Below are positions 2 to 30,360 of a stretch of 32,000 bases of DNA, piece by piece. The DNA comes from Candidatus Heimdallarchaeota archaeon. Lineage in GTDB: Archaea > Asgardarchaeota > Heimdallarchaeia > Heimdallarchaeales > Kariarchaeaceae. The notes below the pieces were generated by a model. That model saw nothing but the letters and a program-made list of their open reading frames with translations. It had not been told where the DNA came from and ran no database searches. Every line of letters begins with the position of its first letter. The first letter of the stretch is position 1. Position numbers and translations under genes: made by a program. Location of the stretch: contig JASBSB010000003.1 of assembly GCA_030149205.1 (NCBI GenBank), positions 30,001 to 62,000 of the forward strand, read 5' to 3'.

Positions 2-799
2 TCTCAGGGTCTTTTAATAGGATTGATATTAATATTAATTTATTTTGGTATAAAAGTAAGTTTTGGATTAATTGATTTTTATGCTTCAAGAGAGAGACAA
101 AAGGTAGATATTGAATCAAGAAATCTTGTTGAGCTCTTTACATTAATTTCAAAAATGACAATTGTCACTTTAATCATTCTATGGGGATTGTCATTAGTAG
201 GAGTAAACATTACAGTCCTAATTACAAGTTTAGGAATATTCAGTGTTGCTATTGCCTTTGGTGCACAAAATATTATAGCAGACACAATATCTGCACTCCT
301 TATTCTAATTGACAAACCATTTCAAATTGGTGATTTTGTCTCAATTGGGAATGATTCCGGGACAGTAACAAAAATAGGAACGAGATCAACTAGATTACAA
401 ACGACCACTGGAAACATGTTAATTATCCCAAATAGAGATGTTTATTCATCCAGGATCAATAATTTTAGACGAATGGACAAGAGGAGAATAATTTACACAG
501 TAGGGTTATCTTATGATTCTGATGTTAAGAAACTTAAAATGGCTTTACCATTGGTTAAAGAAATAGTTGACAGCCATGAATCAGTTCAGTTTATCAGAGC
601 CTATTATGTTAATTTTGGTTCGTATACTTTTGATTTACAGTTAACTTATGATATTCTTACTGGTGATTATGAAACCTACTTAAGAGTTCAACAAGAGATA
701 TTTTTAGATATTCTTGAAAGATTCACAGAGGAAGATATAAACATGCCATATCCCATTCAAGAAGTAAGAATGGCACAATTGAGATCTGAATCTGTGTAA
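2..799 (+). CDS. mscS: Small-conductance mechanosensitive channel (MscS family), 5'-truncated by the window edge
   Basis: TM segments followed by SLGIFSVAIAFGAQNIIADTISALLILIDKPFQIGDFV and IGTRSTRLQT...LIIPN, the typical MscS TM3 and beta-domain signature. The frame is open from base 2, so the TTG at 23 is not the real start. Confidence 0.93.
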   Translation, partial: SQGLLIGLILILIYFGIKVSFGLIDFYASRERQKVDIESRNLVELFTLISKMTIVTLIILWGLSLVGVNITVLITSLGIFSVAIAFGAQNIIADTISALLILIDKPFQIGDFVSIGNDSGTVTKIGTRSTRLQTTTGNMLIIPNRDVYSSRINNFRRMDKRRIIYTVGLSYDSDVKKLKMALPLVKEIVDSHESVQFIRAYYVNFGSYTFDLQLTYDILTGDYETYLRVQQEIFLDILERFTEEDINMPYPIQEVRMAQLRSESV

Positions 800-2146: not shown

Positions 2147-2329
2147 TTATTTTTTTCTGTTGTCTGTTTTTTTAAAGGAAGATTCTTCAATAATAAAATT
2201 TTCAACAGCTTCTCTGACAAAGGCTGCTTTACTTTTGTATTGTTTGGTCTTAATCAATTGATTAATTTTTTCAGTCATTGCAAATGGGATTCTAAAAGTA
2301 ACAGGAGCAAGTTTATTATCCTTATTCAC
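2147..2329 (-). CDS. Ribbon-helix-helix (CopG/MetJ/Arc-like) DNA-binding protein
   Basis: PVTFRIP beta strand, helix FAMTEKINQLIK, then YKSKAAFVREAVENFI, the classic RHH pattern. 60 aa. Confidence 0.8.
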   Translation of the reverse strand: MNKDNKLAPVTFRIPFAMTEKINQLIKTKQYKSKAAFVREAVENFIIEESSFKKTDNRKK

Positions 2330-2377: not shown

Positions 2378-3808
2378 TTAATACGACAAGAAGACTTTTG
2401 ACTCATTTACAAATAATGACAGCATCTCATGTATCTCAGTAGTCATATTTAACACCCCATTTGTCAACGGATTTGCATCATTTTCTGAGAGAAGAAAGTT
2501 TATTTGAGCTGCAGTTGCCCTCAGTAACCCTTTCATCTGGGTAGCCTTGACTAGGGCATTCACTTCCAACGGGTAAATGGCTACAGATAACATAAATTCG
2601 TCATTGCCTGATCTAGTTCTTGAATTTTCAAGAGTGAATATTATATTAATAGATGCAAATTCATTATCTGCATGAATAAATGGGTCAAATTCGTTCACTC
2701 CAGTTGTATCCATTAAGTTCGGAATGATTTTAAGTTTCTCCAGCAATAAGTCATTCGAGGTAGGAGGTGCAGAAAAAACGAGCTTGGGTCCAATAATTTC
2801 ATCAAAGTAAGAGAGGATTACAAATACTTTCAAATCTTCATTCCCACCCATAAATATTTTAGGAGTTCTAGGGTCAAAATTTATCACTACTCGGTAAAGG
2901 TCTAACTTCTTGTGGTTTGTAGAATACATCTTTGCACTAGGCCAACTCACTTCGGAATTTTTCAAATAATTTGGCCCTGTTAGTGAAGGCCGTGTAGTAC
3001 TTGTCTTACTTAATAGCGAGGTAAGTTCTAATTGTTCCCAACTCGGAAAAACAAAATCTACTTGTTGAGAAACATCCCCAAAATTTCGAACAAAAGATTG
3101 AAAACTCTCTTTTAGTAATGATTTAAGAAGGTCAATTGGAATTTTTCTCTTAATTGAGTTTAGCGTGCGTACAAAGAGGGAATCCAGTTGTCTAAATACA
3201 ATTTTCTGCTTTTGCAGAGAATTTATTCCCTCATGAACTTTTATTTGTAAAACTTGATCACTTACTAAAAATCTATCAGGGTACTTTTTCTGTAAGTTGT
3301 TAAATTGACGAGTGACAATTTTTTCAATTTCTATTCTGTAGCTTGTTGCAGCATAGCTTATGACAATTTGATAAAAAACCGAATAAAGGAAAGGAACAAT
3401 TAATAACTTTGATTCACTGTACTTCAATTGTGAAGCTAAAAATCTTGATAAAACAAACCCCAGATCATTTCTGGTAAAGGGTTTATACAAGACATCCTTT
3501 GCCCCATTTCTGAGAAGATAATCCACCTCTATTTTGTTTTGTAGATCTGATAAAACCACCACATAAACATCATTGTTTATAGATAACAGACCCTTGAGAA
3601 CATCTAGTGATTTCATATCTGGTAAAGTGGTATCTAGAAAAATTATTTTTGGATGTAGATTTCCGGATGCTCTGAATGAATCCTTTCCCTCAGCATTCGT
3701 ACCGATGACATTAAAACCGAGGAAACTCAATTCGTCCAGTAACAATTGACGAATATAGATCGAATCATCAATTATTAAGACTGTCTTCAGAATATCCATT
3801 AATTCCAC
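2378..3808 (-). CDS. Response-regulator receiver domain + helical middle region + C-terminal uDENN/longin-like (FLCN/NPRL2-type) domain
   Basis: Receiver motifs are intact: LIIDD, FLDTTLP (phospho-Asp), VVLS, YKPF. The C-terminus has VILSYFDEIIGPKLVF and FTLENSRTRSGNDEFMLSV. The start is GTG 3808 or ATG 3799. Confidence 0.8.
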   Translation of the reverse strand: MELMDILKTVLIIDDSIYIRQLLLDELSFLGFNVIGTNAEGKDSFRASGNLHPKIIFLDTTLPDMKSLDVLKGLLSINNDVYVVVLSDLQNKIEVDYLLRNGAKDVLYKPFTRNDLGFVLSRFLASQLKYSESKLLIVPFLYSVFYQIVISYAATSYRIEIEKIVTRQFNNLQKKYPDRFLVSDQVLQIKVHEGINSLQKQKIVFRQLDSLFVRTLNSIKRKIPIDLLKSLLKESFQSFVRNFGDVSQQVDFVFPSWEQLELTSLLSKTSTTRPSLTGPNYLKNSEVSWPSAKMYSTNHKKLDLYRVVINFDPRTPKIFMGGNEDLKVFVILSYFDEIIGPKLVFSAPPTSNDLLLEKLKIIPNLMDTTGVNEFDPFIHADNEFASINIIFTLENSRTRSGNDEFMLSVAIYPLEVNALVKATQMKGLLRATAAQINFLLSENDANPLTNGVLNMTTEIHEMLSLFVNESKVFLSY

Positions 3809-3875: not shown

Positions 3876-5138
3876 TCAAGCTTGATTATTATACGTCCCT
3901 TCGTCAGCCAACAATTCACTAATTCTTAGTAACTGGTTGTATTTTGAGACTCTTTCAGTTCGAGCAGGTGCGCCTGTTTTTATCCTTTCTGCACCCCACC
4001 CTACAGCAAGATCTGCGATAAAGGTATCCTCAGTTTCTCCTGATCGGTGGGATATTACAACACCCCAGTCCTTTGACTTTGTGAGATCAAAGGCTTCTCT
4101 TGCCTCAGTGAGAGTTCCAATTTGATTGACCTTTAATAACAAATAGTTCATTGCATTTTTATCAATTGCTGTTTTAATTCTATCTACGTTTGTCACAGTA
4201 AGATCATCGGCGACGACTGCAATATTTTTAGGTAGCTTTGAGATGAGTTGAGAGAAGGAGGAGAAGTCATTTTCATCAAACGGGTCTTCAAGAGATATTA
4301 ATGCTGGATAGGTTTTTGTCAGGTCAACAAAATAGTCTACAAGTTCTCCTGAATCAAAATGCTTTTCGTCAAGGTGATATTTTCCATCTTTGTAAAATTC
4401 TGATGCTGCAGCATCTAGCCCAAAATAAAATTCTTTCTTTAGACTGTAACCTGCTTCATTCACAGCATGGGTCAATGCGTCTAAAGCGTCTGAAGCTAAA
4501 TCTATTGGTGGTGCAAATCCCCCTTCATCACCTACATTAGTCGCAGTTCCCCCATATTTTTTCTTCAGGTAGACTTTCAATGTGTGGTAGACCTCAGAGG
4601 CAGCACGAATGGCTTCAGGGAAAGTGTCGAACCCTAAGGGTAAAATCATGAATTCTTGTATTGCAAGCTTTCCCCCTGCATGTTTACCACCGTTAATTAC
4701 GTTTAACATAGGTGTTGGAATTCTTTTACCAGAACCAAGATATTGAAATAAAGGAATATTTTTTTGATTTGCTACAGCCTTAGCGCTAGCAATACTGACT
4801 CCTAAAATTGCATTTGCCCCTAAATTAGCTTTGTTTGGGGTTCCATCAAGTTCTATCATTAACTTGTCTAATCCCTCTTGGTGAGATGCATCGAATCCTA
4901 TTACTTTGGGGCCAATAATTTCTTTAATATTTTTAACTGCATTTAATACCCCTTTACCGAGATATCTTTTACCTCCATCTCTTAGTTCAACAGCCTCATA
5001 TTTTCCTGTTGATGCACCTGAAGGGACAGTAAATCTTCCGGTTGAATGAGAGGTGGAAACTTCACATTCTACAGTTGGATTTCCTCGAGAATCTAAAACC
5101 TCTCTTGCATGAACTTTCTTGATTTCAAATTCATTCAT
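3876..5138 (-). CDS. eno: Enolase (phosphopyruvate hydratase)
   Basis: AREVLDSRGNPTVE, VPSGASTG, GGKH, QEFMI, GDEGG, DAAASEF, EDP, LLKVNQIG, SHRSGETED and KTGAPARTER; catalytic and Mg-binding residues are present. Confidence 0.99.
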   Translation of the reverse strand: MNEFEIKKVHAREVLDSRGNPTVECEVSTSHSTGRFTVPSGASTGKYEAVELRDGGKRYLGKGVLNAVKNIKEIIGPKVIGFDASHQEGLDKLMIELDGTPNKANLGANAILGVSIASAKAVANQKNIPLFQYLGSGKRIPTPMLNVINGGKHAGGKLAIQEFMILPLGFDTFPEAIRAASEVYHTLKVYLKKKYGGTATNVGDEGGFAPPIDLASDALDALTHAVNEAGYSLKKEFYFGLDAAASEFYKDGKYHLDEKHFDSGELVDYFVDLTKTYPALISLEDPFDENDFSSFSQLISKLPKNIAVVADDLTVTNVDRIKTAIDKNAMNYLLLKVNQIGTLTEAREAFDLTKSKDWGVVISHRSGETEDTFIADLAVGWGAERIKTGAPARTERVSKYNQLLRISELLADEGTYNNQA

Positions 5139-5212: not shown

Positions 5213-6343
5213 TTAGACAACCCAATCTTTAATTTGGTTTTGAGAAAGGTTAGCTAATTCAGATAGCTTTTGTGCATGATCTGTAATTTCTTGTAAGGAT
5301 GCCGCTTGTTCTTCTGCAGCGGCTGCTGCTTCTTGAGATGAGGCAGCTGTATTCTCTGCGACCCCAGCAATACTGTTGACTGCATTTACTATGTTTTGTA
5401 CTGCACCCCTGATGTTTGAATTAATATTATTGGTTATCTCAGATATAGAAACAGCTGCACCTTTAGATTCTTTTGAAAGTTTTCTAACCTGTTCAGCGAC
5501 AACTTGAAATCCTTGTCCAGCAGCACCTGCACGAGCAGCCTCAATTGCTGCATTTAAAGCAATTAAATTCGTTTGCTCGGCTATGTCTAGGGTTATGTTT
5601 GAGGTTGTAGAAATCTGTCTGATAGAGTCCTCTACAATGAAAACCATCTCAGATAAGATCTTTGAAATTTCATCGATCTGACGAACTTGTTCAGCAGCAC
5701 CTTCTGCTATTGTCTGGATTGTTCCAGTTACCTCCTCTGTGGTTGCTGCAACCTCTTCACTTCCTGATGCAAGTTCTTCTGCTGAATCAGCAACCTGCAT
5801 TGCAGATGATTTTATTGCCGCAATTACCGTTCTTACAGTATTTGCAAGCATTCTGTTAGCTTCAACCAACCTTCTCGCTTCCCCGCTACCCCTCGTCCTT
5901 CCTAATATTTCTACGGAAAGGTTCCTCTCAGCGAACTGTGTAGACTGTTCCGCAACTGCTTTTAAAGGTTTCACGACTCTTTGTTCTAATGTTATCGCTA
6001 AATAAAATGATACAATGAATATTACAGCGGTTATTAAAAATGCCAAATTAGTATTATTGATGGTATAATTTGTGGGTATTGATGTCGTCTGAGCACCCAA
6101 GGTTGTTAGCAGGTAGAAGAAAACTCCGAAGGCAATATATCCCCCAATCATTGCTACAGTGAATGCACGTCTTGAAATGTTAGATGTAAACCTCAAGCGA
6201 TCTATAAAGGGATTTATTAAAGGGAGCTTGAAATTGAAAACTGGTAAGATAATTAAAAACAAGACTAATAACACAGCTTCATAAATTATAATTTGGATCA
6301 GAAGATTCGTTACCGAAGTTACATCGAAGTAAATATAACCCAT
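5213..6343 (-). CDS. Methyl-accepting chemotaxis protein with about 3 TM helices, HAMP and a short signalling domain
   Basis: [36 protein letters not shown] hairpin tip; HAMP-like [20 protein letters not shown]; methylation-consensus segments [10 protein letters not shown] and [10 protein letters not shown]. Confidence 0.95.
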
Positions 6344-6437: not shown

Positions 6438-7469
6438 TTACGCATATGTAGAATTCATCAGAGTTTGTCTTATGGCTTCTTTCAAGAGAGGGATGTTCTC
6501 CCCTGTCTTAGAACTAACTTTTAAAAAGGCAAACTCTGAATCTGAGAATTTTAGTTGACTCTCTAAACCTGAGATGAGTCTTTGAATTGATGCTTCGGAA
6601 ACCTTCTGTTTTAAATCAGACTTAGTCCCCACGATAATGAAATCTATTCCCATCCCTTTATTTTTTAATAGCTCTTTTAGCCAATACTCTATTCTAAGAA
6701 AGGTTGAATTTTCTGACAGATCGAATACAATGACACCTAGAGAGGATTGAGAAAGAAAACTGGTTCGTAAGGGTATGTAGAAATCCTTACTACTAATATC
6801 AACTAATTGCCCAAAAATGTGGAAGTTATATCCCTCATATTCAATATCTTCAATATTTGCTCCAACTGTTGTTATGTAATCTTCTACAAAGTTTTTTTCG
6901 AGCAAAGCTCTCTTTAGGTTAGTTCTCCCAACTCCTGGCTCTCCTAAGAAAACAACCTTGGCTGGGTTATCCTTAGACCCTATTATTAGCTTCTTGCTTT
7001 TTGTGTCTTTCTTCTGAATTGGGAATTGTATAATTTCTTCTTTCTCTTCTTCTACTTTAGATTCAGAGTTTACCTCAACTCCAAATGTTGAATAACCCTC
7101 AGGAACAAACTTTTGTGGTGTTGGGATATTAAAAATTGTTGACTCTTCGGCTGCGGGATTTTTATGCATAAGACGAGCAGTGTCAGTTAATTTGTTAAAT
7201 TCCTGTTTCTTATTAAAGAAATAGTCGTGGATTAGTTCAGGACTAATAACAAAATTTGGTTCTTCAGGATTATCTTCACCTGTAGACTGAGACTGACTTT
7301 TTATCATCTTCTCAACTCTTTTCACTTCACTTTCATAATAAATTAATTCTTGCTTGTATTTTGCCTCTGAGATTACACCTGAGTTAACCTTGTTAAACCT
7401 TCCGCTAATCCATTCGAAAAGCTCTGCAAGGTAATCATCCCAGTCGGAAGAATCAATTTCTTTATCCAC
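6438..7469 (-). CDS. Rab-like small GTPase domain with an acidic N-terminal extension of about 170 aa; G1 and G3 are degenerate
   Basis: G1 GEPGVGRT, G2 YITTVGA, G3 LVDISSK, VIVFDLS...TFLRIEYWLKEL, G4 VGTKSD, G5 VSSKTGENI. GTG start. No C-terminal Cys. Confidence 0.88.
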   Translation of the reverse strand: MDKEIDSSDWDDYLAELFEWISGRFNKVNSGVISEAKYKQELIYYESEVKRVEKMIKSQSQSTGEDNPEEPNFVISPELIHDYFFNKKQEFNKLTDTARLMHKNPAAEESTIFNIPTPQKFVPEGYSTFGVEVNSESKVEEEKEEIIQFPIQKKDTKSKKLIIGSKDNPAKVVFLGEPGVGRTNLKRALLEKNFVEDYITTVGANIEDIEYEGYNFHIFGQLVDISSKDFYIPLRTSFLSQSSLGVIVFDLSENSTFLRIEYWLKELLKNKGMGIDFIIVGTKSDLKQKVSEASIQRLISGLESQLKFSDSEFAFLKVSSKTGENIPLLKEAIRQTLMNSTYA

Positions 7470-7535: not shown

Positions 7536-8291
7536 TCATTTCTCAGTCAAATATTCATGTTCGATTTTGGTTTTAATCTTGTAGAAAAGCATCAACATCT
7601 GGTTTTTGTTCTCAGTCGCGTAAATTATTTTCCCTGCAAGTATGTAATTCGTATCATAAATTCTTGATAAAACCAGTGATTCTTTAAATGAATGGTTTCC
7701 CTGAAAAAATACGTTTGATTCTCCAACCCAATCTTTTTCGAATGGTAGTTGAGAGCACAAGTTCATCAACAGTTCCATAGAATCCTCTTCTCCAAAAAAC
7801 TGATGTATCAAACCCCGCTCTAGGTGAATTAAAGATAAATTATTAAATTCGATCTCCTCAAAATTATCTAAGACGTGGACACTGGAAAGAACAGAGTTTG
7901 TGATTTGTAAAAATTCAGTGGAATTTGATAATATTAACTTAATTTGGTCTATAATTGAAGGAGAGGGGACATAACTAAATATTACTGTATCATCTAACCT
8001 ATCACCAATAAATAAAATTACCTTTTCCATAGTTTTTTTCGTATGGGCTATATTATCAAATTTATCTGTAAATGCAACGTAGGATAATCCTTTATGTCCA
8101 ATCACTAAGATACGTAATGCTCCAATTTCTGCCTTCTCAAACTCATAATCTCTATCTAAATTGTCGGTAAACATTATAAGAGCCCCAACCAGTCCGGTCA
8201 TAAGTGAGGAATCAACTGCTATAGAATCATCATCAAAAAGCTCAAAACCGATACCTGAGCCAGAGTCTAGCACCAAAAGCTTTTTTATCAA
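7536..8291 (-). CDS. Longin-domain protein, probably two tandem longin-like domains
   Basis: Domain 1 reads b1 KKLLVLD, b2 GIGFELF, a1 DSSLMTGLVGALIMF (D-x-x-L-x-x-G-x-x-x-A-L-x-x-F, as in small longins), three strands, then a2. The C-terminal half repeats a b-b-a-b-b-b-a pattern. TTG start. Confidence 0.7.
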   Translation of the reverse strand: MIKKLLVLDSGSGIGFELFDDDSIAVDSSLMTGLVGALIMFTDNLDRDYEFEKAEIGALRILVIGHKGLSYVAFTDKFDNIAHTKKTMEKVILFIGDRLDDTVIFSYVPSPSIIDQIKLILSNSTEFLQITNSVLSSVHVLDNFEEIEFNNLSLIHLERGLIHQFFGEEDSMELLMNLCSQLPFEKDWVGESNVFFQGNHSFKESLVLSRIYDTNYILAGKIIYATENKNQMLMLFYKIKTKIEHEYLTEK

Positions 8292-17456: not shown

Positions 17457-20400
17457 TTATTCACCATCCTCGAAACTAAAGTCCTCAAAATCATCTTCTT
17501 CGATGAATTGGGTCTTCGCTCCAGTTGCAATCAAAGTTTGGATTGTAACCTCTAGTGCATCGAAAGCCTCCTTCCAATCATCTAAGGTTATCTCATCTTT
17601 CCCATACTTTGCTTTTTCAAATTTATAAGCCAGAATGTTCAGTACAATCACATCAACTGAGGTGATTGAACCTATCTGAGCTACATACATCCTAACAGAC
17701 ATATTATATTTTCTCGGAACCTGTAGAACTTCCTTTCCAGCTCTTTCCAAGGCCTGCCATATAAGGAGAATTGACTCGCGGTAATTTCCCTGGTTTGCTA
17801 ACCTCCTTATATCATCAGTTATGTCAGCAAGTCTGCTGGTTAGCAGCTTTTCACGTTGCCTTCTTCGATACCTCTCAATTAAACTATGACGACGATAGTA
17901 CAGTATCAATACCCCTAACCCAAAAATAAATGCTGCAACAATGAATAGGAAGCTTTGGGATTGTGGATTAACGTTACTTAGGTTAGTAGTTAAAGTAATG
18001 TTTGCAGTAAATGTCTGACCATTTGACACAAAAGTTGTTTGAGTAGTTATTACTGTCCCACTTGGAATTTGTGGAAATGCAGAAATTACAAATTTTGCGC
18101 CCCCAGCATTTACATTCACAGTATTGCCAAACTTATCTTGAACCTTAAAGCTCCATTGAATTGTAGCATTAACCGCATATTCTTTTAATGGAATTGTATA
18201 AACCTCCGTCACAAATGCATTTTTACCAATTGAAGTCGATTTGAACAATGTTGTTTCAATTATAATTTGACTTCCATTTGCATATGTAAAAACCAAGGTG
18301 ACATTTACAAGACCTATTCCTGATGAGAACAGATCAGAAGCATTGAACGATATTGAAACGGTCTCGTTGTCCCACAATTCATAAAAAGTTGCATTGTTTA
18401 ATGGTCTTGGGCTTATCGGAAAAGCCTGTCCGAATTGGTTTTTGATAATTGGTGTAGTTACAACTGGTAAAGACGTATCTACAACGATTGGGTTATGGAT
18501 TGTGGTTGAACCAGAAAAGACCTTAGACACAAAGTCTGTCAATGCTTTATTTCCTACAGTATCACCATATCTAAACCTATAATCAACTTCTACAAGAAAC
18601 TGCAATAAAGAAGAGTTAAACTCAAATTGAAATTGGTTCCCACCAATATTTGTCATGTTTACTATAGATAATTGTCCCCAGGATGTCGTGTTGAATCTGG
18701 TTATTGGATCAATCAATCTTGTTCGATATTGAATCTCTACAAATGAAATCCCAGTAGCATCGGCAGGAGCATTAAAAACAACAAAAAGCTTACTACCATT
18801 GGTTACGGTTCCAATATAGATCCCAAGCTGAGTACTATTTACCTGTACTGCAGTTTTAATATCTACAGGAGTTACAGAAGAATCACCCATTTTTATCATT
18901 AACCCGTTGGTTGAAGCTGGTCCTCTGGGTCTTGTGGTTTGATTCCATTGGGGAAGACTCCTTGAATCTGCGATATTGGTTACTTTGGGATCATAAGCTG
19001 GTGGTCTTCTCGTCGTCCCATCTAGATTTAACCCATTTCCAGCGAGGTCATACGCAATAAAATAGAACTCAACCCATCTACCATTATCAGTAACCCCCCT
19101 AAATGGTACTGTATAGGTAAATACTGCGTTTGTGGTATCATTTATCATTGTGGCCTTTGTAAATGAACCTGAGAATGTAGCATTAATTGGAGAATTTATT
19201 AGATAGTTCGAACTGTATCTGTAATAAATTGTTACATTTCGCATATTGTCAGCTGTTAATGTAAAAGAAAGAAATGAGATACTAATGGTTACTGAATTAG
19301 GAGAACCATTGTCTCCAGAAATAAGCAATTTAGTTAGATCAAAATTAGGTTTCGAATGGTCAGGACCAAACAGAGTGAATTGTTTAGTAACTGTTGCTAA
19401 AACCGCTAGACTGGGGTCTAACAATTTTGCAGTAAACACAAACCCATCTCCTTCAAAATTGGTTAATCTATCTTTGTTGATACCGGATGGGTTTAAAATC
19501 TGAGTAATTGTAGATAACGGCAGTGTAAACACACCATTGTTTGTAGCATTAACAATTTGATTTCCTCCGTTTTTCACAGAGTTATAAAATATTATAGTTT
19601 CACCAATCTGAATGTAATACCCCAGAGGTGCCCTGTTAAAAGCATCTCGAACAGTTAAGCTTATGTTAGCAGTAGGACTTGTGAGTAACCCATTGAATGT
19701 TATGTTAAAGATAGGGGTGTTTATACCATTCATCTGGTATCCAAGAGCTTTCTGAGTTACAAATTGAGGGTTGTTGGTGTAATCAAAGGATCCGTAAGAA
19801 TTAGATAGTCCCAGGGGATTCAACCATTGATCATTTGTGGTTAAAGGGTTATCCACCTTGATTACCACATTAAACGTTCCAGTACCCGTGGTATAAGAAA
19901 GAAGAGTGACTGTTACTGAAAATTGACCCAAAGAGTTTGATTGAGTCTTAATTAACTGAACGTTTAATAAATTACTATCGTTTATGAAAATTGAAATACC
20001 GACCAAGTTTGCTGGATTTGCAGCTGAATCAGTAACAGAACCAGTAATTGTAAATTGTGAGCCAACGGTAAGATAGGTTGATGTTGTGGATGGAATTGTT
20101 GAGGTAACTGTTAAAGTTTGAACTGATCCCTGTAATTTTATAGTCTGAGTAATGGTCTTTGGTGTAACACCTGCAATAGTTGCATTATTGTTTGAGTTCA
20201 TTTCAAATGTGATAACTATATCTTTTGTCACATCATTATACGTACTTGTGTTAAGATTGAATTTGAAATTAAACTTACCATTTGAATCGGTTTTCCCCAG
20301 TTGATTCACTAAAGTTAGAGAATTATACACCATTGTGACTTTATACTGTACTCCTACCAATGTCGTGGGACTTACTCCCCCAGATACAGTCAGGGTTCCA

Positions 20401-21515
20401 GTGAAATTGACCAGTTGATTTGCTCTTTGGTACCTTTTGATTGGATCAAACGCGACAGCAGCGACAGTTGTACTAAGGCCAAATACGTAGTTGACATCAA
20501 CAGTTAACACCGTTTTGTTTGAGATTACAGGTGAGGTTAAGTTGGTCTCAGAATTAAATTCCAAGTAGGGGAGAAATGCAAGGTAATTTGCCAATGATAC
20601 TGTTTCTGCTATATTGATACTTACTGTCTGGGAACCGGTATTCGAGGCAATTGAAATAGATGAAGAGCTAAATGGGACATTCGAAGCAGACGCCTGTGTT
20701 GCAGTATTCGCAGTCCCCGTAGTAACGGGAGTATAAACTTCAGATAATGAATATGTGATAGCTGAGGTAGAAACTACAGTATTGAATTCATTTTGATATG
20801 TAAAGGTTGCAGGATTAAATGGACTGGTATCTGAATGTTCCAATGTTATAAGTATATTGTAAGGGGTGTTTGGGGGGACTGTAGTAACAAGTTGGTCGGT
20901 TGTGATTTTGAGTGTTATAACGTCAAAAACAGTAATCACGCCAGATTTTACAGTTCCAGGTAACCTAAATAGAGAAGGGTTACCTCCAAAATAAACTGAG
21001 TAATTATGTGCACCTATATCAGCAACTGTATAAGTAAGTGCGAAGTTGAATGTGCCTCCAGAGCCAGTTACTACAGATTGATTTGCATATCCTTCTCTGA
21101 TCAGAATTACTGTTTCTCCTACCCAATAATCATTTGGAGCTGATGATTTCAAAACACCATTAATATTCAGTTGAACACCAATTTGAGTTTTATAATTCTG
21201 AACTGCAAGGGTTTTAAAGCCAGTCTTTTGTTTGGGAAGAGATTGTAATTTAAAATCGTAATTTTGGATATTATTTTTATTTTGATTCATATTAGTTGTT
21301 ATCTCTTCATTTGACTTTGTAGGAACCTCTGAGTTTAAACCAGGTTGAGATAAAATTATTGAGGATTTCGAATTGTGACTGTGAGAAGTTAAATTAGTTG
21401 GGATGTTAGTTTTTGAGCTATGGATGATCCTTGCTGATTCTTGAAAAGCAATTGTAGTAAAAACTGAGCTTGTAAGAAGCACAAACATTAGGACAACTAG
21501 GTAAACTTTCTTCAT
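17457..21515 (-). CDS. 1352-aa surface protein: signal peptide, multiple Ig-like beta-sandwich modules, one TM helix, cytoplasmic DUF4129 and acidic tail
   Basis: Signal peptide MKKVYLVVLMFVLL; recurrent TDSNGKF, TGSGGTF and SNSLGQF Ig-like motifs; about 30 N-x-S/T sequons by hand count; TM FLFIVAAFIFGLGVLILYY; LAYKFEKAKYG (DUF4129). Confidence 0.85.
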   Translation of the reverse strand: MKKVYLVVLMFVLLTSSVFTTIAFQESARIIHSSKTNIPTNLTSHSHNSKSSIILSQPGLNSEVPTKSNEEITTNMNQNKNNIQNYDFKLQSLPKQKTGFKTLAVQNYKTQIGVQLNINGVLKSSAPNDYWVGETVILIREGYANQSVVTGSGGTFNFALTYTVADIGAHNYSVYFGGNPSLFRLPGTVKSGVITVFDVITLKITTDQLVTTVPPNTPYNILITLEHSDTSPFNPATFTYQNEFNTVVSTSAITYSLSEVYTPVTTGTANTATQASASNVPFSSSSISIASNTGSQTVSINIAETVSLANYLAFLPYLEFNSETNLTSPVISNKTVLTVDVNYVFGLSTTVAAVAFDPIKRYQRANQLVNFTGTLTVSGGVSPTTLVGVQYKVTMVYNSLTLVNQLGKTDSNGKFNFKFNLNTSTYNDVTKDIVITFEMNSNNNATIAGVTPKTITQTIKLQGSVQTLTVTSTIPSTTSTYLTVGSQFTITGSVTDSAANPANLVGISIFINDSNLLNVQLIKTQSNSLGQFSVTVTLLSYTTGTGTFNVVIKVDNPLTTNDQWLNPLGLSNSYGSFDYTNNPQFVTQKALGYQMNGINTPIFNITFNGLLTSPTANISLTVRDAFNRAPLGYYIQIGETIIFYNSVKNGGNQIVNATNNGVFTLPLSTITQILNPSGINKDRLTNFEGDGFVFTAKLLDPSLAVLATVTKQFTLFGPDHSKPNFDLTKLLISGDNGSPNSVTISISFLSFTLTADNMRNVTIYYRYSSNYLINSPINATFSGSFTKATMINDTTNAVFTYTVPFRGVTDNGRWVEFYFIAYDLAGNGLNLDGTTRRPPAYDPKVTNIADSRSLPQWNQTTRPRGPASTNGLMIKMGDSSVTPVDIKTAVQVNSTQLGIYIGTVTNGSKLFVVFNAPADATGISFVEIQYRTRLIDPITRFNTTSWGQLSIVNMTNIGGNQFQFEFNSSLLQFLVEVDYRFRYGDTVGNKALTDFVSKVFSGSTTIHNPIVVDTSLPVVTTPIIKNQFGQAFPISPRPLNNATFYELWDNETVSISFNASDLFSSGIGLVNVTLVFTYANGSQIIIETTLFKSTSIGKNAFVTEVYTIPLKEYAVNATIQWSFKVQDKFGNTVNVNAGGAKFVISAFPQIPSGTVITTQTTFVSNGQTFTANITLTTNLSNVNPQSQSFLFIVAAFIFGLGVLILYYRRHSLIERYRRRQREKLLTSRLADITDDIRRLANQGNYRESILLIWQALERAGKEVLQVPRKYNMSVRMYVAQIGSITSVDVIVLNILAYKFEKAKYGKDEITLDDWKEAFDALEVTIQTLIATGAKTQFIEEDDFEDFSFEDGE

Positions 21516-24500
21516 TTTTGCAACCTACCTTTATTTATCGCATTTAATTCAGGACTGATAGTCTGAAATTTGAGTGGTTCTATCCTGGATGTATTTGGCA
21601 AATTCAATCCAGAAGCCGGAGGTGAGGCAACACTAATAACAAAAAATGTGCTAGATGTACCATTCTTGATTAGATTATATCTACTAAATCCATCGCTCAC
21701 GACAATAACATAGTATTGACCTGCCCCTATATCACTAGCGTTCACATTTAACGTTGAGCTTGCGTTACCTAATGAGTCAGTAATTAATCCTCCCGAAGCA
21801 TAGGTGGTTGGGTGGGTCACAACTTTTGAAAGGTTATAGTATGCTGAACTTTCCGTCTGACCTGCAATGAAAGTTGCAAACGAATTGTAATCAGTAATCC
21901 CTGCTCCGTCATATAATGCTTTATTCACAAACATGTATTGCAATGGAGCATTAGCTATTCCTGCTGGTTGAGCTAGTAGTGTAGCGACTGATAACATTGT
22001 AGTGTTTACTTGCCATGTATTGTATATTTTTCCTGATGAAATAACAGATGTGTTAAAGTATGCTGAGTTTAACATCGCTGCTTGACTTGACACTAAAACA
22101 GCAACTGGGTTTGAAAAAATACTTGTTCCTTCCCAATAGGCTAAAAAGAAATAAATCTGATCATTTACTGGGTAGGTTGCACTTTTATTGAAACTAAATG
22201 TCATCTTCCACTTAGAATTACCAGTTGAATTTGTAGTAGATGGATTAGAACCAACAGTCATTATCCCTTGAGCAAAACTCTTAGCGTTTGAAATTGCTGT
22301 TTGTCCCAAATTTGCTAGATTTAATGAATTATATTGAGATTGTGTGAAAAGAAGCAGGCTAACAGATTGCGAAGACATGACATTACTTGGAGACTGAGTA
22401 CTTGATTTGTAAAGTGTTGTTACTAAATTAAACCCGACTTCAGGCGTAACAATATACCCTGTCGCATTTACACCAGAAATAGTTTGTGGGACAAGTTTTT
22501 CACCAACTAGCACACTAGTCCCATTACGTATCCACCCAATACCTGTATAATTGTAACTCAATCCAGATATTGCGGCAATTCCATAGCCATTTGTGGGCAA
22601 TCCAGAACCAGGGTTTATAGCTGCAGCTATATCCATTGCCTTGACTGTGGTTATAACCGTTGTTGAGGTTCCAATGGTAAGATTCCCCAGATCATTTACA
22701 GTTCCATTCAGTAAATAATAACCTTTTGAGTTAGTTTGAAAATTGCCAAATGTAATTCCTGCAGTTGTGGGGTCTTTAATGGAACCCGATTGAACTTGCA
22801 GTAGAGTTTGTTCATCATAAAATTTCATTAGTAGGTTTTGATTTGCAGCGGGACTTCCACTAAGGCTTGCACTTACATTTATTTGGAAATTGTTTCCAAA
22901 AGTCTGTAAATTAAACGGGATTTGAGGAACTGAGCTTTTCCCTGAGGTAGTAGAAACTTTTATTTTAGTTTGTGTACTCATAGCGTTTCTACCATAGGCC
23001 ACAATTCCATTGGCGAGTTGGCTAAATATTGGAATTGGGTTAAATATTGCCCAACTATAATATGTACCGGTTGAATTTTGCCAAGGAATAAGTGATTCCA
23101 CCCAATAATGAATATCTTTCATCTTTAATTGTATTTCATTCCCTTGGATAGCCCCTCCAGCCAAACCTAAAACTAATCTCGTGGGAATATTGAATGATCG
23201 TAACATATTAACATACCCAGGAAGTAGTTCTTTAAGCCCCCATGACAATGCACCATTACTTTCTAACGCTTGGTAAAAGTAATGACCCTTGTCTGTACTT
23301 CCCCCGGTTGTTGGTTGACCTTGTACTGGATCTAATGATAAGGTTCCCTTTTGATATGCATCTAAAATTACACTTTGAATAAAATTGGTCACTGCAACTG
23401 TGGCAGAGTAAACTGAGGTATTTCCTGCAAAACTGTTTTTGAATTCATTATATTTTCGGGTAAAAGCATCAGCTACACCAATTTGTTGATTTTGGTAGAT
23501 ATAGTTTTGTTGACCTGGCAATGAGTTAACACCCCAAGTTGATGAAACTCCTGCCCCATTCGACTGTAATTTTGTCGCGGGAACTCTATCACTTGGAATC
23601 CCTGCAAAATAGTTGGAAATTTGGCTAAGAGGTACTGAACGAGAGCTAATTGATGATTTATCTTCAGCTTTCCAAACAGCAGGGACAACAATGCCACCTT
23701 GAGAGGTGGACTGAGAGAATTTAGCCGAAATTCGAGGTTGTTCATTTACTCCTCTTACAACAGATGAACTTACAAGTGATACATTATTATTAGAAAAATA
23801 AGAATATGATTTTGTATCTGCAAGTTGTGAACCGTAGAGAGAGTTCCAAAATGAAAGTAAAGGTTGATTATAAGTCGACCCAATAGTATAATAAGAGTTT
23901 GAAATTTGAAAACTTCTTAGTGAAGATGGATCTTGTCCAGTTGTAGGAACAGTTGTTGGGATGAATGGCATTGTGGTTACAGTGTCACCTTGCTTAAAAT
24001 CATTTGCAGTTGGATCCCAGGTATCTGAGATTTGCCACCGAAACAGGTAAATGTCACGTTGAGGGTTTAACCCAAGTCCATCTGTTGGGGTAACATTGGC
24101 AACAATCTGGTTAGCCAAATTAGGTGTCATTCCGTTTAATAGTTTCATAAGAGCATTTGATAACTCATCATAAAATGGAGAGGTCAATTTTGAAAGGTCA
24201 AACTGTGTGTTGTTTGGTTTAAATTGATTATCTGGAATCTGCCGTACGATGTAAGGCTCAATAAAGAAGGGTGATATCAATGAAGTGAAAATAAGAACCA
24301 CAATTGTAATGGTAACCAATTGTCTAAATGATTTATTCCATTTTTTAGGGTTGAATCCTTGGGTAAATATTGCATACCCTAAAAATGTTGCAATAGTTGT
24401 TCCCACAATTCCAGTTATCGCAAATTGAAGGATAGGATTCATGGTCGTAAAAAAGGAATGAATTCCTCTAAAAAGTCCGTTGCTTGAATTTGTGAATGAA

Positions 24501-24697
24501 CCTATACTATCAAGATATGCTATGAGTGCATAAGTTCCAAAGATAGCTCCAAATGTTATCTGAGGGATTTTTTTTGGTGGTATTGAAGGTAACTTAATAC
24601 GTGGTTCTTTTCTCCTAAATTTTTTAATAACGACATTCCCTTCTTTATCGAGAGTTCGAATGGTAATTCCTTTCTTTTTCCTTTTTTTTGAGCTCAT
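21512..24697 (-). CDS. Transglutaminase-like (TgpA-type) membrane protein lacking the catalytic Cys; 3 N-terminal TM helices and a beta-rich C-terminal ectodomain
   Basis: MLRSFNIPTRLVLGLAGG...IHYWVE...WAIFNPIP is the TGase core. The translation contains no Cys. Its stop overlaps the next start (ATGA), and it has a GGTGGT SD. Confidence 0.82.
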   Translation of the reverse strand: MSSKKRKKKGITIRTLDKEGNVVIKKFRRKEPRIKLPSIPPKKIPQITFGAIFGTYALIAYLDSIGSFTNSSNGLFRGIHSFFTTMNPILQFAITGIVGTTIATFLGYAIFTQGFNPKKWNKSFRQLVTITIVVLIFTSLISPFFIEPYIVRQIPDNQFKPNNTQFDLSKLTSPFYDELSNALMKLLNGMTPNLANQIVANVTPTDGLGLNPQRDIYLFRWQISDTWDPTANDFKQGDTVTTMPFIPTTVPTTGQDPSSLRSFQISNSYYTIGSTYNQPLLSFWNSLYGSQLADTKSYSYFSNNNVSLVSSSVVRGVNEQPRISAKFSQSTSQGGIVVPAVWKAEDKSSISSRSVPLSQISNYFAGIPSDRVPATKLQSNGAGVSSTWGVNSLPGQQNYIYQNQQIGVADAFTRKYNEFKNSFAGNTSVYSATVAVTNFIQSVILDAYQKGTLSLDPVQGQPTTGGSTDKGHYFYQALESNGALSWGLKELLPGYVNMLRSFNIPTRLVLGLAGGAIQGNEIQLKMKDIHYWVESLIPWQNSTGTYYSWAIFNPIPIFSQLANGIVAYGRNAMSTQTKIKVSTTSGKSSVPQIPFNLQTFGNNFQINVSASLSGSPAANQNLLMKFYDEQTLLQVQSGSIKDPTTAGITFGNFQTNSKGYYLLNGTVNDLGNLTIGTSTTVITTVKAMDIAAAINPGSGLPTNGYGIAAISGLSYNYTGIGWIRNGTSVLVGEKLVPQTISGVNATGYIVTPEVGFNLVTTLYKSSTQSPSNVMSSQSVSLLLFTQSQYNSLNLANLGQTAISNAKSFAQGIMTVGSNPSTTNSTGNSKWKMTFSFNKSATYPVNDQIYFFLAYWEGTSIFSNPVAVLVSSQAAMLNSAYFNTSVISSGKIYNTWQVNTTMLSVATLLAQPAGIANAPLQYMFVNKALYDGAGITDYNSFATFIAGQTESSAYYNLSKVVTHPTTYASGGLITDSLGNASSTLNVNASDIGAGQYYVIVVSDGFSRYNLIKNGTSSTFFVISVASPPASGLNLPNTSRIEPLKFQTISPELNAINKGRLQK

Positions 24698-26666: not shown

Positions 26667-28694
26667 CTATTTTTCTATATTAAATTCTGAGAGGATAGTG
26701 TTCAATTCACTTGCGACTGTAGCAATTTCTGCAGCTTGGTAACTTATTTCATGTAACATTGAAACCTGTTCTGTTGTGGCTGCATTAGCTTCCTGTGTGT
26801 TTGATGCTGTGGTTTCTGAAATATCTCTAATATCGCTAACCTCATGTATCACATTGTCAATTGTTCGACTAATCTTAAATGAGATCTCATCAATTAACCC
26901 AGAAATTTGATTTGCATAGTTCTTCGTATCGTCAGAGAATTCCCTAACATTTTCCGCAACAATACTAAACCCTCTACCAAAATCACCAGCTTTTGCGGCT
27001 TCAATCGATGCGTTTAAACCTAGGATGTTTGTCCTCTTTGCCACTTTCTGGACAAAGATAGAGGTGTCTGCTATCCTTGAGGTAGCATCTGTGACTTCTT
27101 TAAGGTGTCCCTTTAACTTATCTGATACCTCAGCGATTAATCTGTTTTGTTCACTTGCACCATATGCGATGCTAGAGATTGTATCAGATACCTGTGAGAT
27201 TGATGCAGAGGCTTCTTCAGAACTTGAAGCCATGGTTTCAGAGATTGATGAAAGGGTTTCACTAGACTCTGCAAGTTTTGCTATGAGAAATTGCAGAGAT
27301 TCCACGACCGAATTAAACCCGATTTGGATCCTCCCAATTTCTCCAGCTGATATATGCTTAAATTTCTTTATGCTAAGGTCTCTTTCAATGATCTTAGAGA
27401 AACCTTTGTCAAGTTGGATTGTCAATCTACGTAAATTAATCAAGAGAGGTACAACGAATAAAAATATCAACAATCCAATAAGTGAAACAAGAATAAGCCT
27501 AACCAAAAATATCTGATTCAATCTTTGTTGAATATAACCGGTTAATAGAATTCTAAAGTTTTGACTTTGAGCAGAAACAATAGCAATCAAAGTCGAAAAA
27601 TCACTAATTATCTGTGAAATCTTAGCTGGGACAACCAATGTTGATGTATCTATTAAAGATTGGATACTTGTAGAGACAATATCTAAGAACTGTAAAGACT
27701 TCTTTGTTGTTGGATAAATAGCATTTGTTGAGTTGAAGCTGATATTATATAAATCCTTGAATAGCTTTGATTCATTACTCTGTAGTTTAATGTATCCTAC
27801 GGAATTCGGGTTTAAGACCTGTTGAAGTGAGGAGTTAGCTGAAAGTTGGAAAAGATCAATTTTTTGACGGAACCTTGATGCCTCTCTTTGTATAACTGAA
27901 ATTTTCTCTGTGAACATTACAGCGTTAAACTGCACTAAGAAAGAATAAAGTTCATTTAAGTTTGTCTTTACATTATCTGCTACTTTGAGGACTGAATAAG
28001 CATACTTTAGAAGAGTACTGTTATTTGTTGCATTCGCTGTCTGGAAAAGTGTATGTAAACTCGTGGTAATTTCACTTAATTTTATTGTAACATTGGCAAA
28101 GGTTCCAGTTTGAGAAAGACTACTTCCTTGTCTATAGAACCCAGTTAGATTCGCAACCGTGTCAGCAAAATTGTTTAAGTTATTATAATAATTTATTTGG
28201 TCAGTAGATAGTGTTGAGAAAATGGGTGGTAATCCGAACTTCATCTCATTTTTCACATTGTCGAACAAGATGTTGATGGCGCTTGAATTTAACAAGTTAA
28301 TACTGGTTTTATATTGATTTAGATTGTATCCTTCGTTATCTCTCTGAGTAATTTTTTGACTAAGTAAACCCAGTAGGGAATTAATTTTGGTTAGATTTTT
28401 ATTGTAATCAAGTGTTTGAGGGCTTTTCTCTCTCCAACTAACAAGCAACCCATCAACTGACTGAGATTGGAACAGGTTTACCATCTCCTGCTGAACTTGA
28501 TACATTAAATTAGTTATATTTTGATCTCTTAACTGGTACTGAGACCCCCTGTTTATATCTGATGCTAACTGAAGGTTTTGAGTTCTGTTGTATGCCTCAG
28601 GTATAACTAGAGCCATTATGAGTAACAAAATCACTAAAACCACACGTGTGGTTATTGATAACGTTCTTCTGGAATGAAGATTTTCTGCTGACAA
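26667..28694 (-). CDS. Methyl-accepting chemotaxis protein with a large helical extracellular sensor and a short signalling domain
   Basis: Two TM helices flank about 360 aa rich in sequons; tip VAKRTNILGLNASIEAAKAGDFGRGFSIVAENVR; methylation-consensus segments ASSSEEASAS and ASNTQEANAA. TTG start with a GAGGT SD. Confidence 0.93.
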   Translation of the reverse strand: MSAENLHSRRTLSITTRVVLVILLLIMALVIPEAYNRTQNLQLASDINRGSQYQLRDQNITNLMYQVQQEMVNLFQSQSVDGLLVSWREKSPQTLDYNKNLTKINSLLGLLSQKITQRDNEGYNLNQYKTSINLLNSSAINILFDNVKNEMKFGLPPIFSTLSTDQINYYNNLNNFADTVANLTGFYRQGSSLSQTGTFANVTIKLSEITTSLHTLFQTANATNNSTLLKYAYSVLKVADNVKTNLNELYSFLVQFNAVMFTEKISVIQREASRFRQKIDLFQLSANSSLQQVLNPNSVGYIKLQSNESKLFKDLYNISFNSTNAIYPTTKKSLQFLDIVSTSIQSLIDTSTLVVPAKISQIISDFSTLIAIVSAQSQNFRILLTGYIQQRLNQIFLVRLILVSLIGLLIFLFVVPLLINLRRLTIQLDKGFSKIIERDLSIKKFKHISAGEIGRIQIGFNSVVESLQFLIAKLAESSETLSSISETMASSSEEASASISQVSDTISSIAYGASEQNRLIAEVSDKLKGHLKEVTDATSRIADTSIFVQKVAKRTNILGLNASIEAAKAGDFGRGFSIVAENVREFSDDTKNYANQISGLIDEISFKISRTIDNVIHEVSDIRDISETTASNTQEANAATTEQVSMLHEISYQAAEIATVASELNTILSEFNIEK

Positions 28695-28777: not shown

Positions 28778-29782
28778 CTATAATTCCCTAGTGGGGGATT
28801 GTGAAGAATTAAATAAATAGTTACCCAATACACGTAATGCTGGGCTGCCTCTAATTTCTTGGTCGAAAAATGGGATTTGGATTATGTTATATGATGCAAA
28901 AAGCCTTTGAAGTGTTTCTAAACTTTTTTTCTGTCCAGAAGATCTTGCCATACAAAATTTACAGTCCAAATTTTCAGGCATTATTTGATTGACAATAATG
29001 GAATTTACCTTGATATTTTGTCTCTTCAATTCAGCAACAAGCCTTTCAGATTCGTTTATTGCCATCACAGTAGGTATTGTAACGACGATGAATTCTGTTT
29101 TCTTCTCGTCCTGGAAAAACATACGCAAATCTTCAATCATCGTCTGAAGATTCTCTATAACCTCAATAGTTCGATCTTTTTGAGTTTCCACTCCAAAGAT
29201 TGATTTAAATCCCCCAAATATGTTGTTAATTTTAGCTTTAAGTCTCATTGTTTTGCTTAGAAAAACATCCAAAAAGCCAGGTAGTGATAATAATCTCAAA
29301 GTGTGGCCTGTTGGTGCAGTGTCAAAAACCACCTTTTGATACCCTTCATATTCTGGTTGTTTTAGAACCTGAAGAATTTTTGCAATTGCCAGAGCTTCAT
29401 CAAATCCAGGTGGCATTGTTGTCAACAAATCGTTTATCTCTTCTAGGCCAAAGGAATTTATTGATTGTTTCAATTCATCTTTGCTGCTTCCCGCCATGTT
29501 TAATAAGTCTGCAAAATCATCTGATGATTGTTCGGGATCAAGTTCCAGGGCAAATAAATCTCCATTAGAATCAATGACTTTTGTTATTTGACCTTGGATA
29601 AAAATTTGATCGAATGAATCAGAGAGTGAATGAGCTGGGTCTGTAGAGATTACCAGAGTTTTTTGACCAGCTTCTGCCAAGGATAATGCAGTAGCTGCAG
29701 CGGAGGAGGTTTTACCGGTACCACCTTTTCCGCCGACTAAAATGAATCTCTTTTCATTATCACTTAGAAGATAACTTAACAT
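28778..29782 (-). CDS. ArsA/Get3(TRC40)-family ATPase; single-domain, Get3-like
   Basis: Deviant Walker A GGKGGTGKTS, switch I STDPAHSLSD, PPGFDEA, switch II DTAPTGHTLRLL, and C-terminal CKFC. Confidence 0.92.
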   Translation of the reverse strand: MLSYLLSDNEKRFILVGGKGGTGKTSSAAATALSLAEAGQKTLVISTDPAHSLSDSFDQIFIQGQITKVIDSNGDLFALELDPEQSSDDFADLLNMAGSSKDELKQSINSFGLEEINDLLTTMPPGFDEALAIAKILQVLKQPEYEGYQKVVFDTAPTGHTLRLLSLPGFLDVFLSKTMRLKAKINNIFGGFKSIFGVETQKDRTIEVIENLQTMIEDLRMFFQDEKKTEFIVVTIPTVMAINESERLVAELKRQNIKVNSIIVNQIMPENLDCKFCMARSSGQKKSLETLQRLFASYNIIQIPFFDQEIRGSPALRVLGNYLFNSSQSPTREL

Positions 29783-29790
29783 TTTGTCAC

Positions 29791-30360
29791 CTATTGAAAG
29801 AACTGCTTCTTAACAATTAAGATTATGATGGGTATCAATAAAATTAGTGAACTCATCAAAAATATATTTTGCCATTGAACCTGTAAAGTAGATGGAGGTT
29901 GGCCCAGTCTAACTTCTAAATAAACTGGATCAGATTTTGCAGAATATTTGTTCCCGTTTGCATCTTGATAGCTAATGGTTGTTGGTTCAAGTGTAAAATT
30001 CCCTGATTTTTTGAAGATTAAATCATATGAATACACATAACTTGAGTTACTGTCAAATTCCAACAATTTAGGAGAGGTGAATCCAATTACATTTTGTGCA
30101 GTCCACGTTGAGAAGGCTGGTTCAGTGATGCTTAGGTTGAATGCTTTTTGTAATCCAAAATTTGTTATATTCACAGAAACTCTAATTGCAGAATTCACCA
30201 GTATGAAACCTGTAACGTTAGCATATTTTTGAATTTGTAATGCTGGCGTGTTCGGTATTGGGGTATGATTATATATTGGTATAGATGATACAGAATGAAC
30301 CTGAATCAATAGAAAAAAGACAAATCCTAACACTGCCATATACCTAAGAATCTTTTTCAT
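29791..30360 (-). CDS. Secreted Ig-like (BatD/DUF11-like) protein with a C-terminal TM anchor
   Basis: Signal peptide; LQIQKY...VSVNITNFG...AFNLSITEP; YSYDL...GNFTLEPTTISY; C-terminal TM helix followed by KKQFFQ. Its stop overlaps the GGTGA SD of the Get3-like gene. Confidence 0.75.
   Translation of the reverse strand: MKKILRYMAVLGFVFFLLIQVHSVSSIPIYNHTPIPNTPALQIQKYANVTGFILVNSAIRVSVNITNFGLQKAFNLSITEPAFSTWTAQNVIGFTSPKLLEFDSNSSYVYSYDLIFKKSGNFTLEPTTISYQDANGNKYSAKSDPVYLEVRLGQPPSTLQVQWQNIFLMSSLILLIPIIILIVKKQFFQ

Follow-up and report, generated by a model that had tools for sequence, protein, structure and literature searches.

A putative Asgard-archaeal response regulator with a longin output domain resembling those of FLCN and NPRL2

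Domain architecture of the receiver-longin protein

We analysed a 32,000-nucleotide stretch of the genome of a Candidatus Heimdallarchaeota archaeon of the family Kariarchaeaceae (assembly GCA_030149205.1, contig JASBSB010000003.1, positions 30,001 to 62,000 of the forward strand; hereafter the window), focusing on a minus-strand gene at positions 2378-3808, whose product joins a bacterial-type phosphorylation receiver (REC) to a longin domain. The open reading frame (ORF) comprises 476 open codons, from a GTG at 3808 to a stop at 2378-2380. Since the identical protein in the database is 473 amino acids (aa) long, the real start is likely the ATG at 3797-3799, which has a TATA-like AT-rich stretch, noted by eye, ~45 nucleotides upstream. 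The AlphaFold2 model of the whole protein (mean predicted local distance difference test score, pLDDT, of 88.4; input alignment of 95 sequences) shows four parts, i.e., receiver, helical domain, linker and longin domain, and Pfam assigned the receiver above its own cut-off and no other family. The receiver-longin protein, as described here, is real and beyond what chance would produce, and we put the probability that it is an Asgard-archaeal response regulator whose longin output is of the eukaryotic GAP type, working by the mechanism proposed below, at roughly 60%.

The receiver (residues ~8-120, positions 3449..3787, minus strand) matches PF00072 over residues 10-116 (49.3 bits against a cut-off of 30.2, E 6.4e-13) and displays the (beta-alpha)5 pattern in the model. 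All of the residues of the phosphorylation site are present: D14 and D15 of the IIDD motif (I12-I13-D14-D15), the phospho-acceptor D59 (codon 3632-3634, minus strand), S87, and the K109-P110-F111 motif, with S16, D59, K109 and P110 being invariant among 10 full-length orthologues. A preliminary description of this DNA, made by reading the sequence, had judged that the receiver looks functional on account of its IIDD, phospho-Asp, beta4 serine and KPF, and every one of these residues was found in its place.

Following the receiver is a helical middle domain (residues ~121-269, 3002..3448, minus strand), modelled at pLDDT >90 as five long helices and one beta hairpin, which is kept in the orthologues and is common to a paralogue, P0102, described below. 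No meaningful family match was obtained for this domain with Pfam (residues 117-320) or with ESM Atlas features, and a search of the AFDB clusters with the whole model gave receiver-driven matches and nothing informative for the middle domain. The linker that comes next (residues ~270-322, 2843..3001, minus strand) has pLDDT <50 at residues 270-277, 293-297, 301-310 and 315-322 of the model, and is probably flexible or disordered.

The C-terminal domain (residues ~323-476, 2381..2842, minus strand) is modelled with what is certainly a longin fold. When folded alone with AlphaFold2, it reached a pLDDT of 90.4 and a predicted template modelling score (pTM) of 0.87, with the element order b-b-a-a-b-b-b-a-a-a, in agreement with the longin pattern (b-b-a-b-b-b-a-a, lacking an N-terminal helix). 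A Foldseek search of this domain against PDB returned NPRL2 of GATOR1 as the top match (9o5d_D, E 8.5e-6), with further matches to yeast Npr2 (8adl_S), FLCN (8dhb_J), a Lokiarchaeal longin (8yqg), NPRL3 and Lst4, and the list against AFDB/Swiss-Prot was headed by NPRL2, SMCR8, C9orf72 and LST7. Searching ESM Atlas by shape yielded Asgard clusters at TM 0.71-0.76, NPRL2 at 0.67-0.69 and C9orf72 at 0.72; the search by features pointed in the same direction, and the nearest clusters are from Promethearchaeota. Across the structure searches the FLCN/NPRL2 class outscores generic longins, and it is, by a modest margin in these model comparisons, the nearest longin subtype. The FLCN/NPRL2-like domain that the preliminary description had placed at ~2400-2830 is recovered by fold searches as a longin of this class and not as an unrelated fold.

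Two closer identities were rejected. The longin domain extends to the last residue, 476, and is followed by neither the DENN core of FLCN nor the NPRL2-specific C-terminal domain, so that the protein is not a full FLCN or NPRL2 orthologue. Identity with MglB or with the Roadblock/LC7 family is ruled out by the longin element order, a roadblock fold having an N-terminal helix and the order a-b-b-a-b-b-b (MglB, 6h5b_C, was matched by Foldseek at E 0.047 and TM 0.32).

A Gly-Pro motif and an invariant arginine

In eukaryotes, longins of this type carry a catalytic arginine in the FLCN-FNIP, GATOR1 (NPRL2-NPRL3) and C9orf72-SMCR8 complexes, whose GTPase-activating protein (GAP) subunits act on RagC/D (FLCN), RagA/B (NPRL2 of GATOR1) and Arf (SMCR8 of the C9orf72 complex). 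For comparison, we take the known arginine fingers to be R164 of FLCN, R78 of NPRL2 and R147 of SMCR8. Queried by itself in a word-indexed homologue search, the C-terminal domain gave no match, and the family was therefore defined by an exhaustive profile search of 1.84 billion representatives, which yielded 96 of them at the cut-off of E<=1e-3. In alignments of 94-96 of these homologues the sole invariant column is R399, while at least 90% of the sequences share F335, G340, P341, F377, N388 and F391; at position 400, at least 90% of the homologues have Gly where this protein has Ser.

Two of these conserved sites deserve attention. The first, Gly340-Pro341 (the GP motif; 2786..2791, minus strand), lies at the start of strand 2, at the beta1-beta2 junction, within the string SYFDEIIGPKLV (residues 333-344), and is at least 90% conserved in 95 homologues. 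The second, Arg399 of RTRSG (2612..2614, minus strand), is placed by the model in the beta4-beta5 loop and is a candidate arginine finger. Both the hairpin and the arginine had been singled out in the preliminary description, and both are where it had located them. A GP motif at strand 2, beside the arginine finger, is reported to mark only longins of the GAP kind (FLCN, NPRL2, SMCR8 and C9orf72), being absent from those of FNIP2, NPRL3, TRAPP and DENND, and Asgard longins are reported to have both the motif and the finger (PMC12290439, Traffic 2025). Arg78 of NPRL2 is cited as the published arginine finger in PMC8213707, and via the aligned range (model 8..158 to NPRL2 chain 5..144) R399, which is R82 of the model, falls within a few residues of it. 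The modelled position of R399 is consistent with that of the NPRL2 finger, short of proving the equivalence.

Fusions to small GTPases and a neighbouring GTPase

Pfam domains found among the 96 longin homologues include Arf (19), PAS (18), Ras (17), REC (11) and HATPase_c (4), and two Asgard clusters of 122 and 274 proteins that carry Arf or Ras domains match the longin domain by shape in ESM Atlas. Because homologous domains are fused to Arf and Ras GTPase domains, we infer that the longin domain works on small GTPases, these fusions being the strongest comparative argument for such a role. The genome encodes at least 25 small GTPases, including one that is Rag-like (529 aa, G000:C2:203692).

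One small GTPase lies close to the receiver-longin gene (6438..7469, minus strand). It is Ras/Rab-like (PF00071, E 3.9e-22) and is extended by 160 aa at the N-terminus, and its G motifs are degenerate: its P-loop reads GxxGVGRT, with Arg in place of the invariant Lys, as it does in orthologues from related genomes; its switch II reads DISSK in this genome only and DLGGQ in the orthologues; and it has TKSD and SSK as well. The orthologues were taken from genome searches, while a strict-threshold homologue search with this GTPase returned only itself. A complex prediction with two longin copies, GTP/Mg and the domain of the neighbouring GTPase scored 0.31 against a mark of 0.32, which speaks neither for nor against an interaction. 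By position alone, this GTPase is a candidate partner.

Paralogues and a possible receiver-helical cassette

The genome also holds paralogues of either end of the protein. A stand-alone longin of 174 aa (G000:C4:85698-86222, minus strand) is 29% identical and has the same GP and Arg, and a second longin paralogue, of 365 aa (G000:C12:24172-25269, plus strand), is a weak match (E 6e-4) that has both GP and Arg, and an N-terminal half to which no family was assigned. P0102 (423 aa; G000:C1:186210-187481, minus strand, equivalent to L023:2211-3482) consists of a receiver and a helical module as in the receiver-longin protein, to which it is 25% identical over residues 10-235, followed by a C-terminal domain that starts with a Gly-Pro hairpin and lacks the conserved Arg in the matching loop. 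Language-model features group this C-terminal domain with the same Asgard clusters, and a profile-profile comparison of the longin family with it was not significant (probability 0.3%, E 0.21). An Arg-less longin in P0102 is, on the basis of the language-model features and a reading of its sequence, a lead only.

P0102-like genes occur alongside the orthologues in eight sampled genomes, the source genome included. P0102 might serve, as FNIP and NPRL3 do, as a partner without catalytic activity, and as a lead only, the two proteins possibly form a finger/no-finger pair as in FLCN-FNIP. A small GTPase (C1:191707-192231) lies ~4 kb from P0102. In another family of the order, an ORF (37-1341 of L058, G086:C133:2400-4000) has the receiver-helical N-terminus joined to a roadblock/LC7-like C-terminus, which suggests that the receiver-helical module is a modular cassette.

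Genomic neighbourhood and distribution

The receiver-longin gene belongs to a series of genes on one strand, in the order 251-aa protein, Ras-like GTPase, methyl-accepting chemotaxis protein (MCP), enolase, receiver-longin gene and small RHH protein. The 251-aa protein (7536..8291, minus strand), without a Pfam family, adjoins the GTPase; its counterparts in two collinear genomes of the genus are 38-41% identical and lie on the opposite strand. The MCP (5213..6343, minus strand; PF00015, E 7.6e-24) lies between the GTPase and the enolase (3876..5138, minus strand) and is collinear in L004, L005 and L041, the enolase separates it from the receiver-longin gene, and the RHH protein (2147..2329, minus strand) comes after the latter. 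Two further genomes of the genus have the block in collinear form, the enolases there being 67-70% identical, the MCPs ~50%, and the GTPases and regulators 32-35%. Orthologues of the receiver-longin gene from two other genera are found among purine-synthesis, VTT-domain and ParA-type genes. Because these orthologues sit among unrelated housekeeping genes, the neighbourhood reflects shared ancestry within the genus and is not operon evidence, and the idea that an operon with the GTPase and MCP is conserved as a general feature was rejected.

Surveying 201 genomes of the phylum, we found full-length matches in 6/6 sampled genomes of the protein's own family (4 complete, 1 cut by a contig end and 1 split by two TAG stops) and, beyond it, in two genomes that belong to a single further family of the order; in the other genomes the matches were to the receiver part only. 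The split orthologue (L016, G178:C73:9450-13436) is interrupted by two in-frame TAG codons in its receiver-helical part, and its longin forms a separate frame of 168 aa; pseudogenisation, a natural split and an assembly error are all possible explanations.

Elsewhere in the window, an ArsA/Get3-type ATPase (28778-29782, minus strand; PF02374, E 4e-80) adjoins a match to TRAP_beta, the translocon-associated protein beta (29791-30360, minus strand; PF05753, E 4e-11), and together they are a eukaryote-like membrane-protein-targeting pair. Two very large overlapping ORFs (17457-21515, 1352 aa, and 21512-24697, 1061 aa, both on the minus strand) have no Pfam match and lie upstream of DUF4129 and DUF4350 proteins. 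The window holds a second MCP of 675 aa at 26667-28694.

CheA as the likely phosphodonor

To what kinase the receiver answers was considered from the signalling proteins of the source genome, whose assembly is 93.5% complete. HATPase_c matches were found in two CheA proteins (C1:128736-130667 and C10:3632-5419), GyrB, MutL, Hsp90 and TopoVI-B, no HisKA match passed the cut-off, and the two CheA proteins are the only receiver kinases that we found. Receiver matches number eight: three CheY-like proteins, a 371-aa ORF in the che cluster of contig C1 (probably CheB), the receiver-longin protein, P0102, a small single-domain protein and one weak match. The chemosensory set further includes CheW and six MCPs, one of which lies two genes upstream of the receiver-longin gene, while archaellin (PF01917) and CheF (PF04283) were not found in this assembly. 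Because the only receiver kinases found are the two CheA proteins, and archaellin and CheF were not found, the protein may be a chemosensory output, and we consider CheA, with fair probability, the most likely phosphodonor. Within the order, families with the full-length protein also have CheW, which was found in 0/19 genomes of a large genus without that protein, and the families that have no CheW have no full-length protein either and, for the most part, no receiver match.

Possible, though clearly less probable, is that the receiver is fed not by CheA but by a histidine kinase that went undetected or unassembled, or by small phosphodonors, the MCP neighbour being coincidental. Such a donor would fit the incompleteness of the assembly, the orthologues in other genera that are not beside MCP genes, and the PF00072 score of the receiver, ~49-53 bits as against 90-98 bits for the three CheY-like proteins; it fits poorly with a genome in which no HisKA and no kinase-type HATPase_c besides CheA were found, and with the joint absence of CheW, the full-length protein and mostly any receiver match from the same families.

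Proposed mechanism and alternatives

The intact receiver residues, the longin fold nearest to FLCN/NPRL2, the GP motif and the invariant Arg together support the overall interpretation of the preliminary description, in which a two-component output domain would regulate a GTPase. In the mechanism that we propose, the longin domain, probably as a dimer, would bind a small GTPase, and Arg399 would stimulate GTP hydrolysis. Phosphorylation of Asp59 would alter the packing or the oligomeric state of the receiver-helical module, and this altered module would switch the availability of the tethered longin on or off. With one of the two CheA kinases serving as the phosphodonor, the protein would then act as an output of a chemosensory pathway. 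The GAP activity, and a small GTPase as its target, are predicted from these comparisons.

Several observations weigh against this interpretation. At the level of sequence there is no bridge from the longin domain to eukaryotic FLCN or NPRL2: Pfam gave no match for residues 300-476 at E<=10, PF11704 (Folliculin) and PF06218 (NPR2) included; three HMMER profiles built from family alignments (2, 95 and 94 rows) and run against all PDB sequences matched no FLCN or NPRL2, only coiled coils or chance sequences; and PF11704 was touched weakly by only 3/96 homologues (best E 2e-4). On the structural side, generic longins are just ~2 Z units behind the FLCN/NPRL2 class, and R399 was placed against the NPRL2 finger by aligned range, to within a few residues. 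Because of its K-to-R change in the P-loop and DISSK in place of DxxGQ, the neighbouring GTPase may not cycle, and may be a poor GAP substrate or a pseudo-GTPase. The linkage to the GTPase and MCP genes is confined to the genus, the arrangement being lost in other genera; the phyletic match between CheW and the full-length protein covers few independent lineages; and the inference of CheA rests on other kinases not having been found in an incomplete assembly. In the literature searched, we did not find demonstrated GAP activity for any Asgard longin.

Most longin domains, moreover, are guanine nucleotide exchange factors (GEFs) or platforms and not GAPs. The longin domain here might likewise be a non-catalytic platform or a GEF, as in Mon1-Ccz1, TRAPP, DENN and Ragulator, with the arginine serving binding or folding and phosphorylation controlling recruitment. 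We regard this as unlikely, as the best structural matches are GAP-type longins, the GP motif is reported absent from non-GAP longins such as FNIP2, NPRL3, TRAPP and DENND, and an exposed-loop Arg that is invariant in 95/95 homologues is typical of a catalytic residue. An output unrelated to GTPases, such as another protein or membrane interaction (as for SNARE and adaptor-sigma longins) or phosphorylation-dependent oligomerisation, is improbable for a domain whose GP and Arg motifs are those of GAP-type longins and about a fifth of whose homologues are covalently fused to Arf or Ras GTPase domains.

Returning to a GAP-type output controlled by the receiver, a bolder version can be envisaged, in which the Che system of this apparently archaellum-less archaeon signals not to a motor but through a pair of receiver-helical-longin proteins, this gene with the finger and P0102 without it, as in FLCN/FNIP or NPRL2/NPRL3, which together would set the nucleotide state of small GTPases. 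We consider this version doubtful; if true, the Che/longin pair would represent, in a prokaryote and under phosphorelay control, a forerunner of the logic by which longin GAPs and Rag GTPases act in eukaryotic nutrient sensing.

Relation to known systems and significance

The longin domain resembles those of FLCN, NPRL2 and SMCR8 in its fold, in the Gly-Pro at strand 2, in an Arg that the model places in the beta4-beta5 loop and in the spacing from GP to Arg, which is as in NPRL2. Unlike FLCN and NPRL2, it comes without a DENN core or NPRL2 C-terminal domain and without detectable sequence homology, and whereas FLCN, NPRL2 and SMCR8 are controlled by nutrient-sensing complexes, control here is proposed to come from the fused receiver. 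A parallel in logic to the proposal is offered by the Frz/MglA/MglB/RomR system of Myxococcus xanthus, in which a CheA-type pathway and receiver proteins act on a Ras-like GTPase via a regulator of the roadblock/longin superfamily. MglB, however, is a roadblock-fold homodimer without an Arg finger, and Myxococcus has its receiver and its GAP on different polypeptides; no homology is implied. The Lokiarchaeal Roadblock-Longin protein (8yqg) has its longin fused to a roadblock domain and not to a receiver, and is 11-16% identical to the longin described here.

Closer relatives are found within the Asgard archaea themselves. The preliminary description did not know the architecture as characterised, yet fusions of NPRL2-like longins to two-component domains in Asgard archaea had already been reported, with their function predicted only (Liu et al., bioRxiv 10.1101/2020.10.19.343400, Nature 2021). 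The protein described here, with a receiver and an NPRL2-like longin in one Asgard polypeptide, has what defines that class and is an additional member of it, its function being predicted as well. Like the NPRL2-like longins of Liu et al. and the longins of the Traffic 2025 study, its longin is of Asgard origin, NPRL2/FLCN-like, and equipped with GP and a conserved Arg. Its subfamily differs from the class at large in the conserved helical domain of 150 residues and the 50-residue linker placed between receiver and longin, in the restriction of full-length orthologues, among the genomes searched, to two families of the order, one of them its own, and in a source genome in which CheA kinases alone were found. 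What we add to the reported class are the helical middle domain, the narrow phyletic range, the set of paralogues and the CheA-only kinase repertoire.

Eukaryotic nutrient signalling and disease involve Rag and Arf GTPases that are controlled by longin GAP complexes (folliculin, GATOR1 and C9orf72-SMCR8), which have been traced back to Asgard archaea. With one receiver that has a clear phospho-site and one longin that has a single invariant Arg, the protein is a compact and tractable candidate, which could show whether the GAP-type longins of archaea are true GAPs, and whether eukaryote-like GTPases were already under the control of phosphorelays in prokaryotes before there were eukaryotes.
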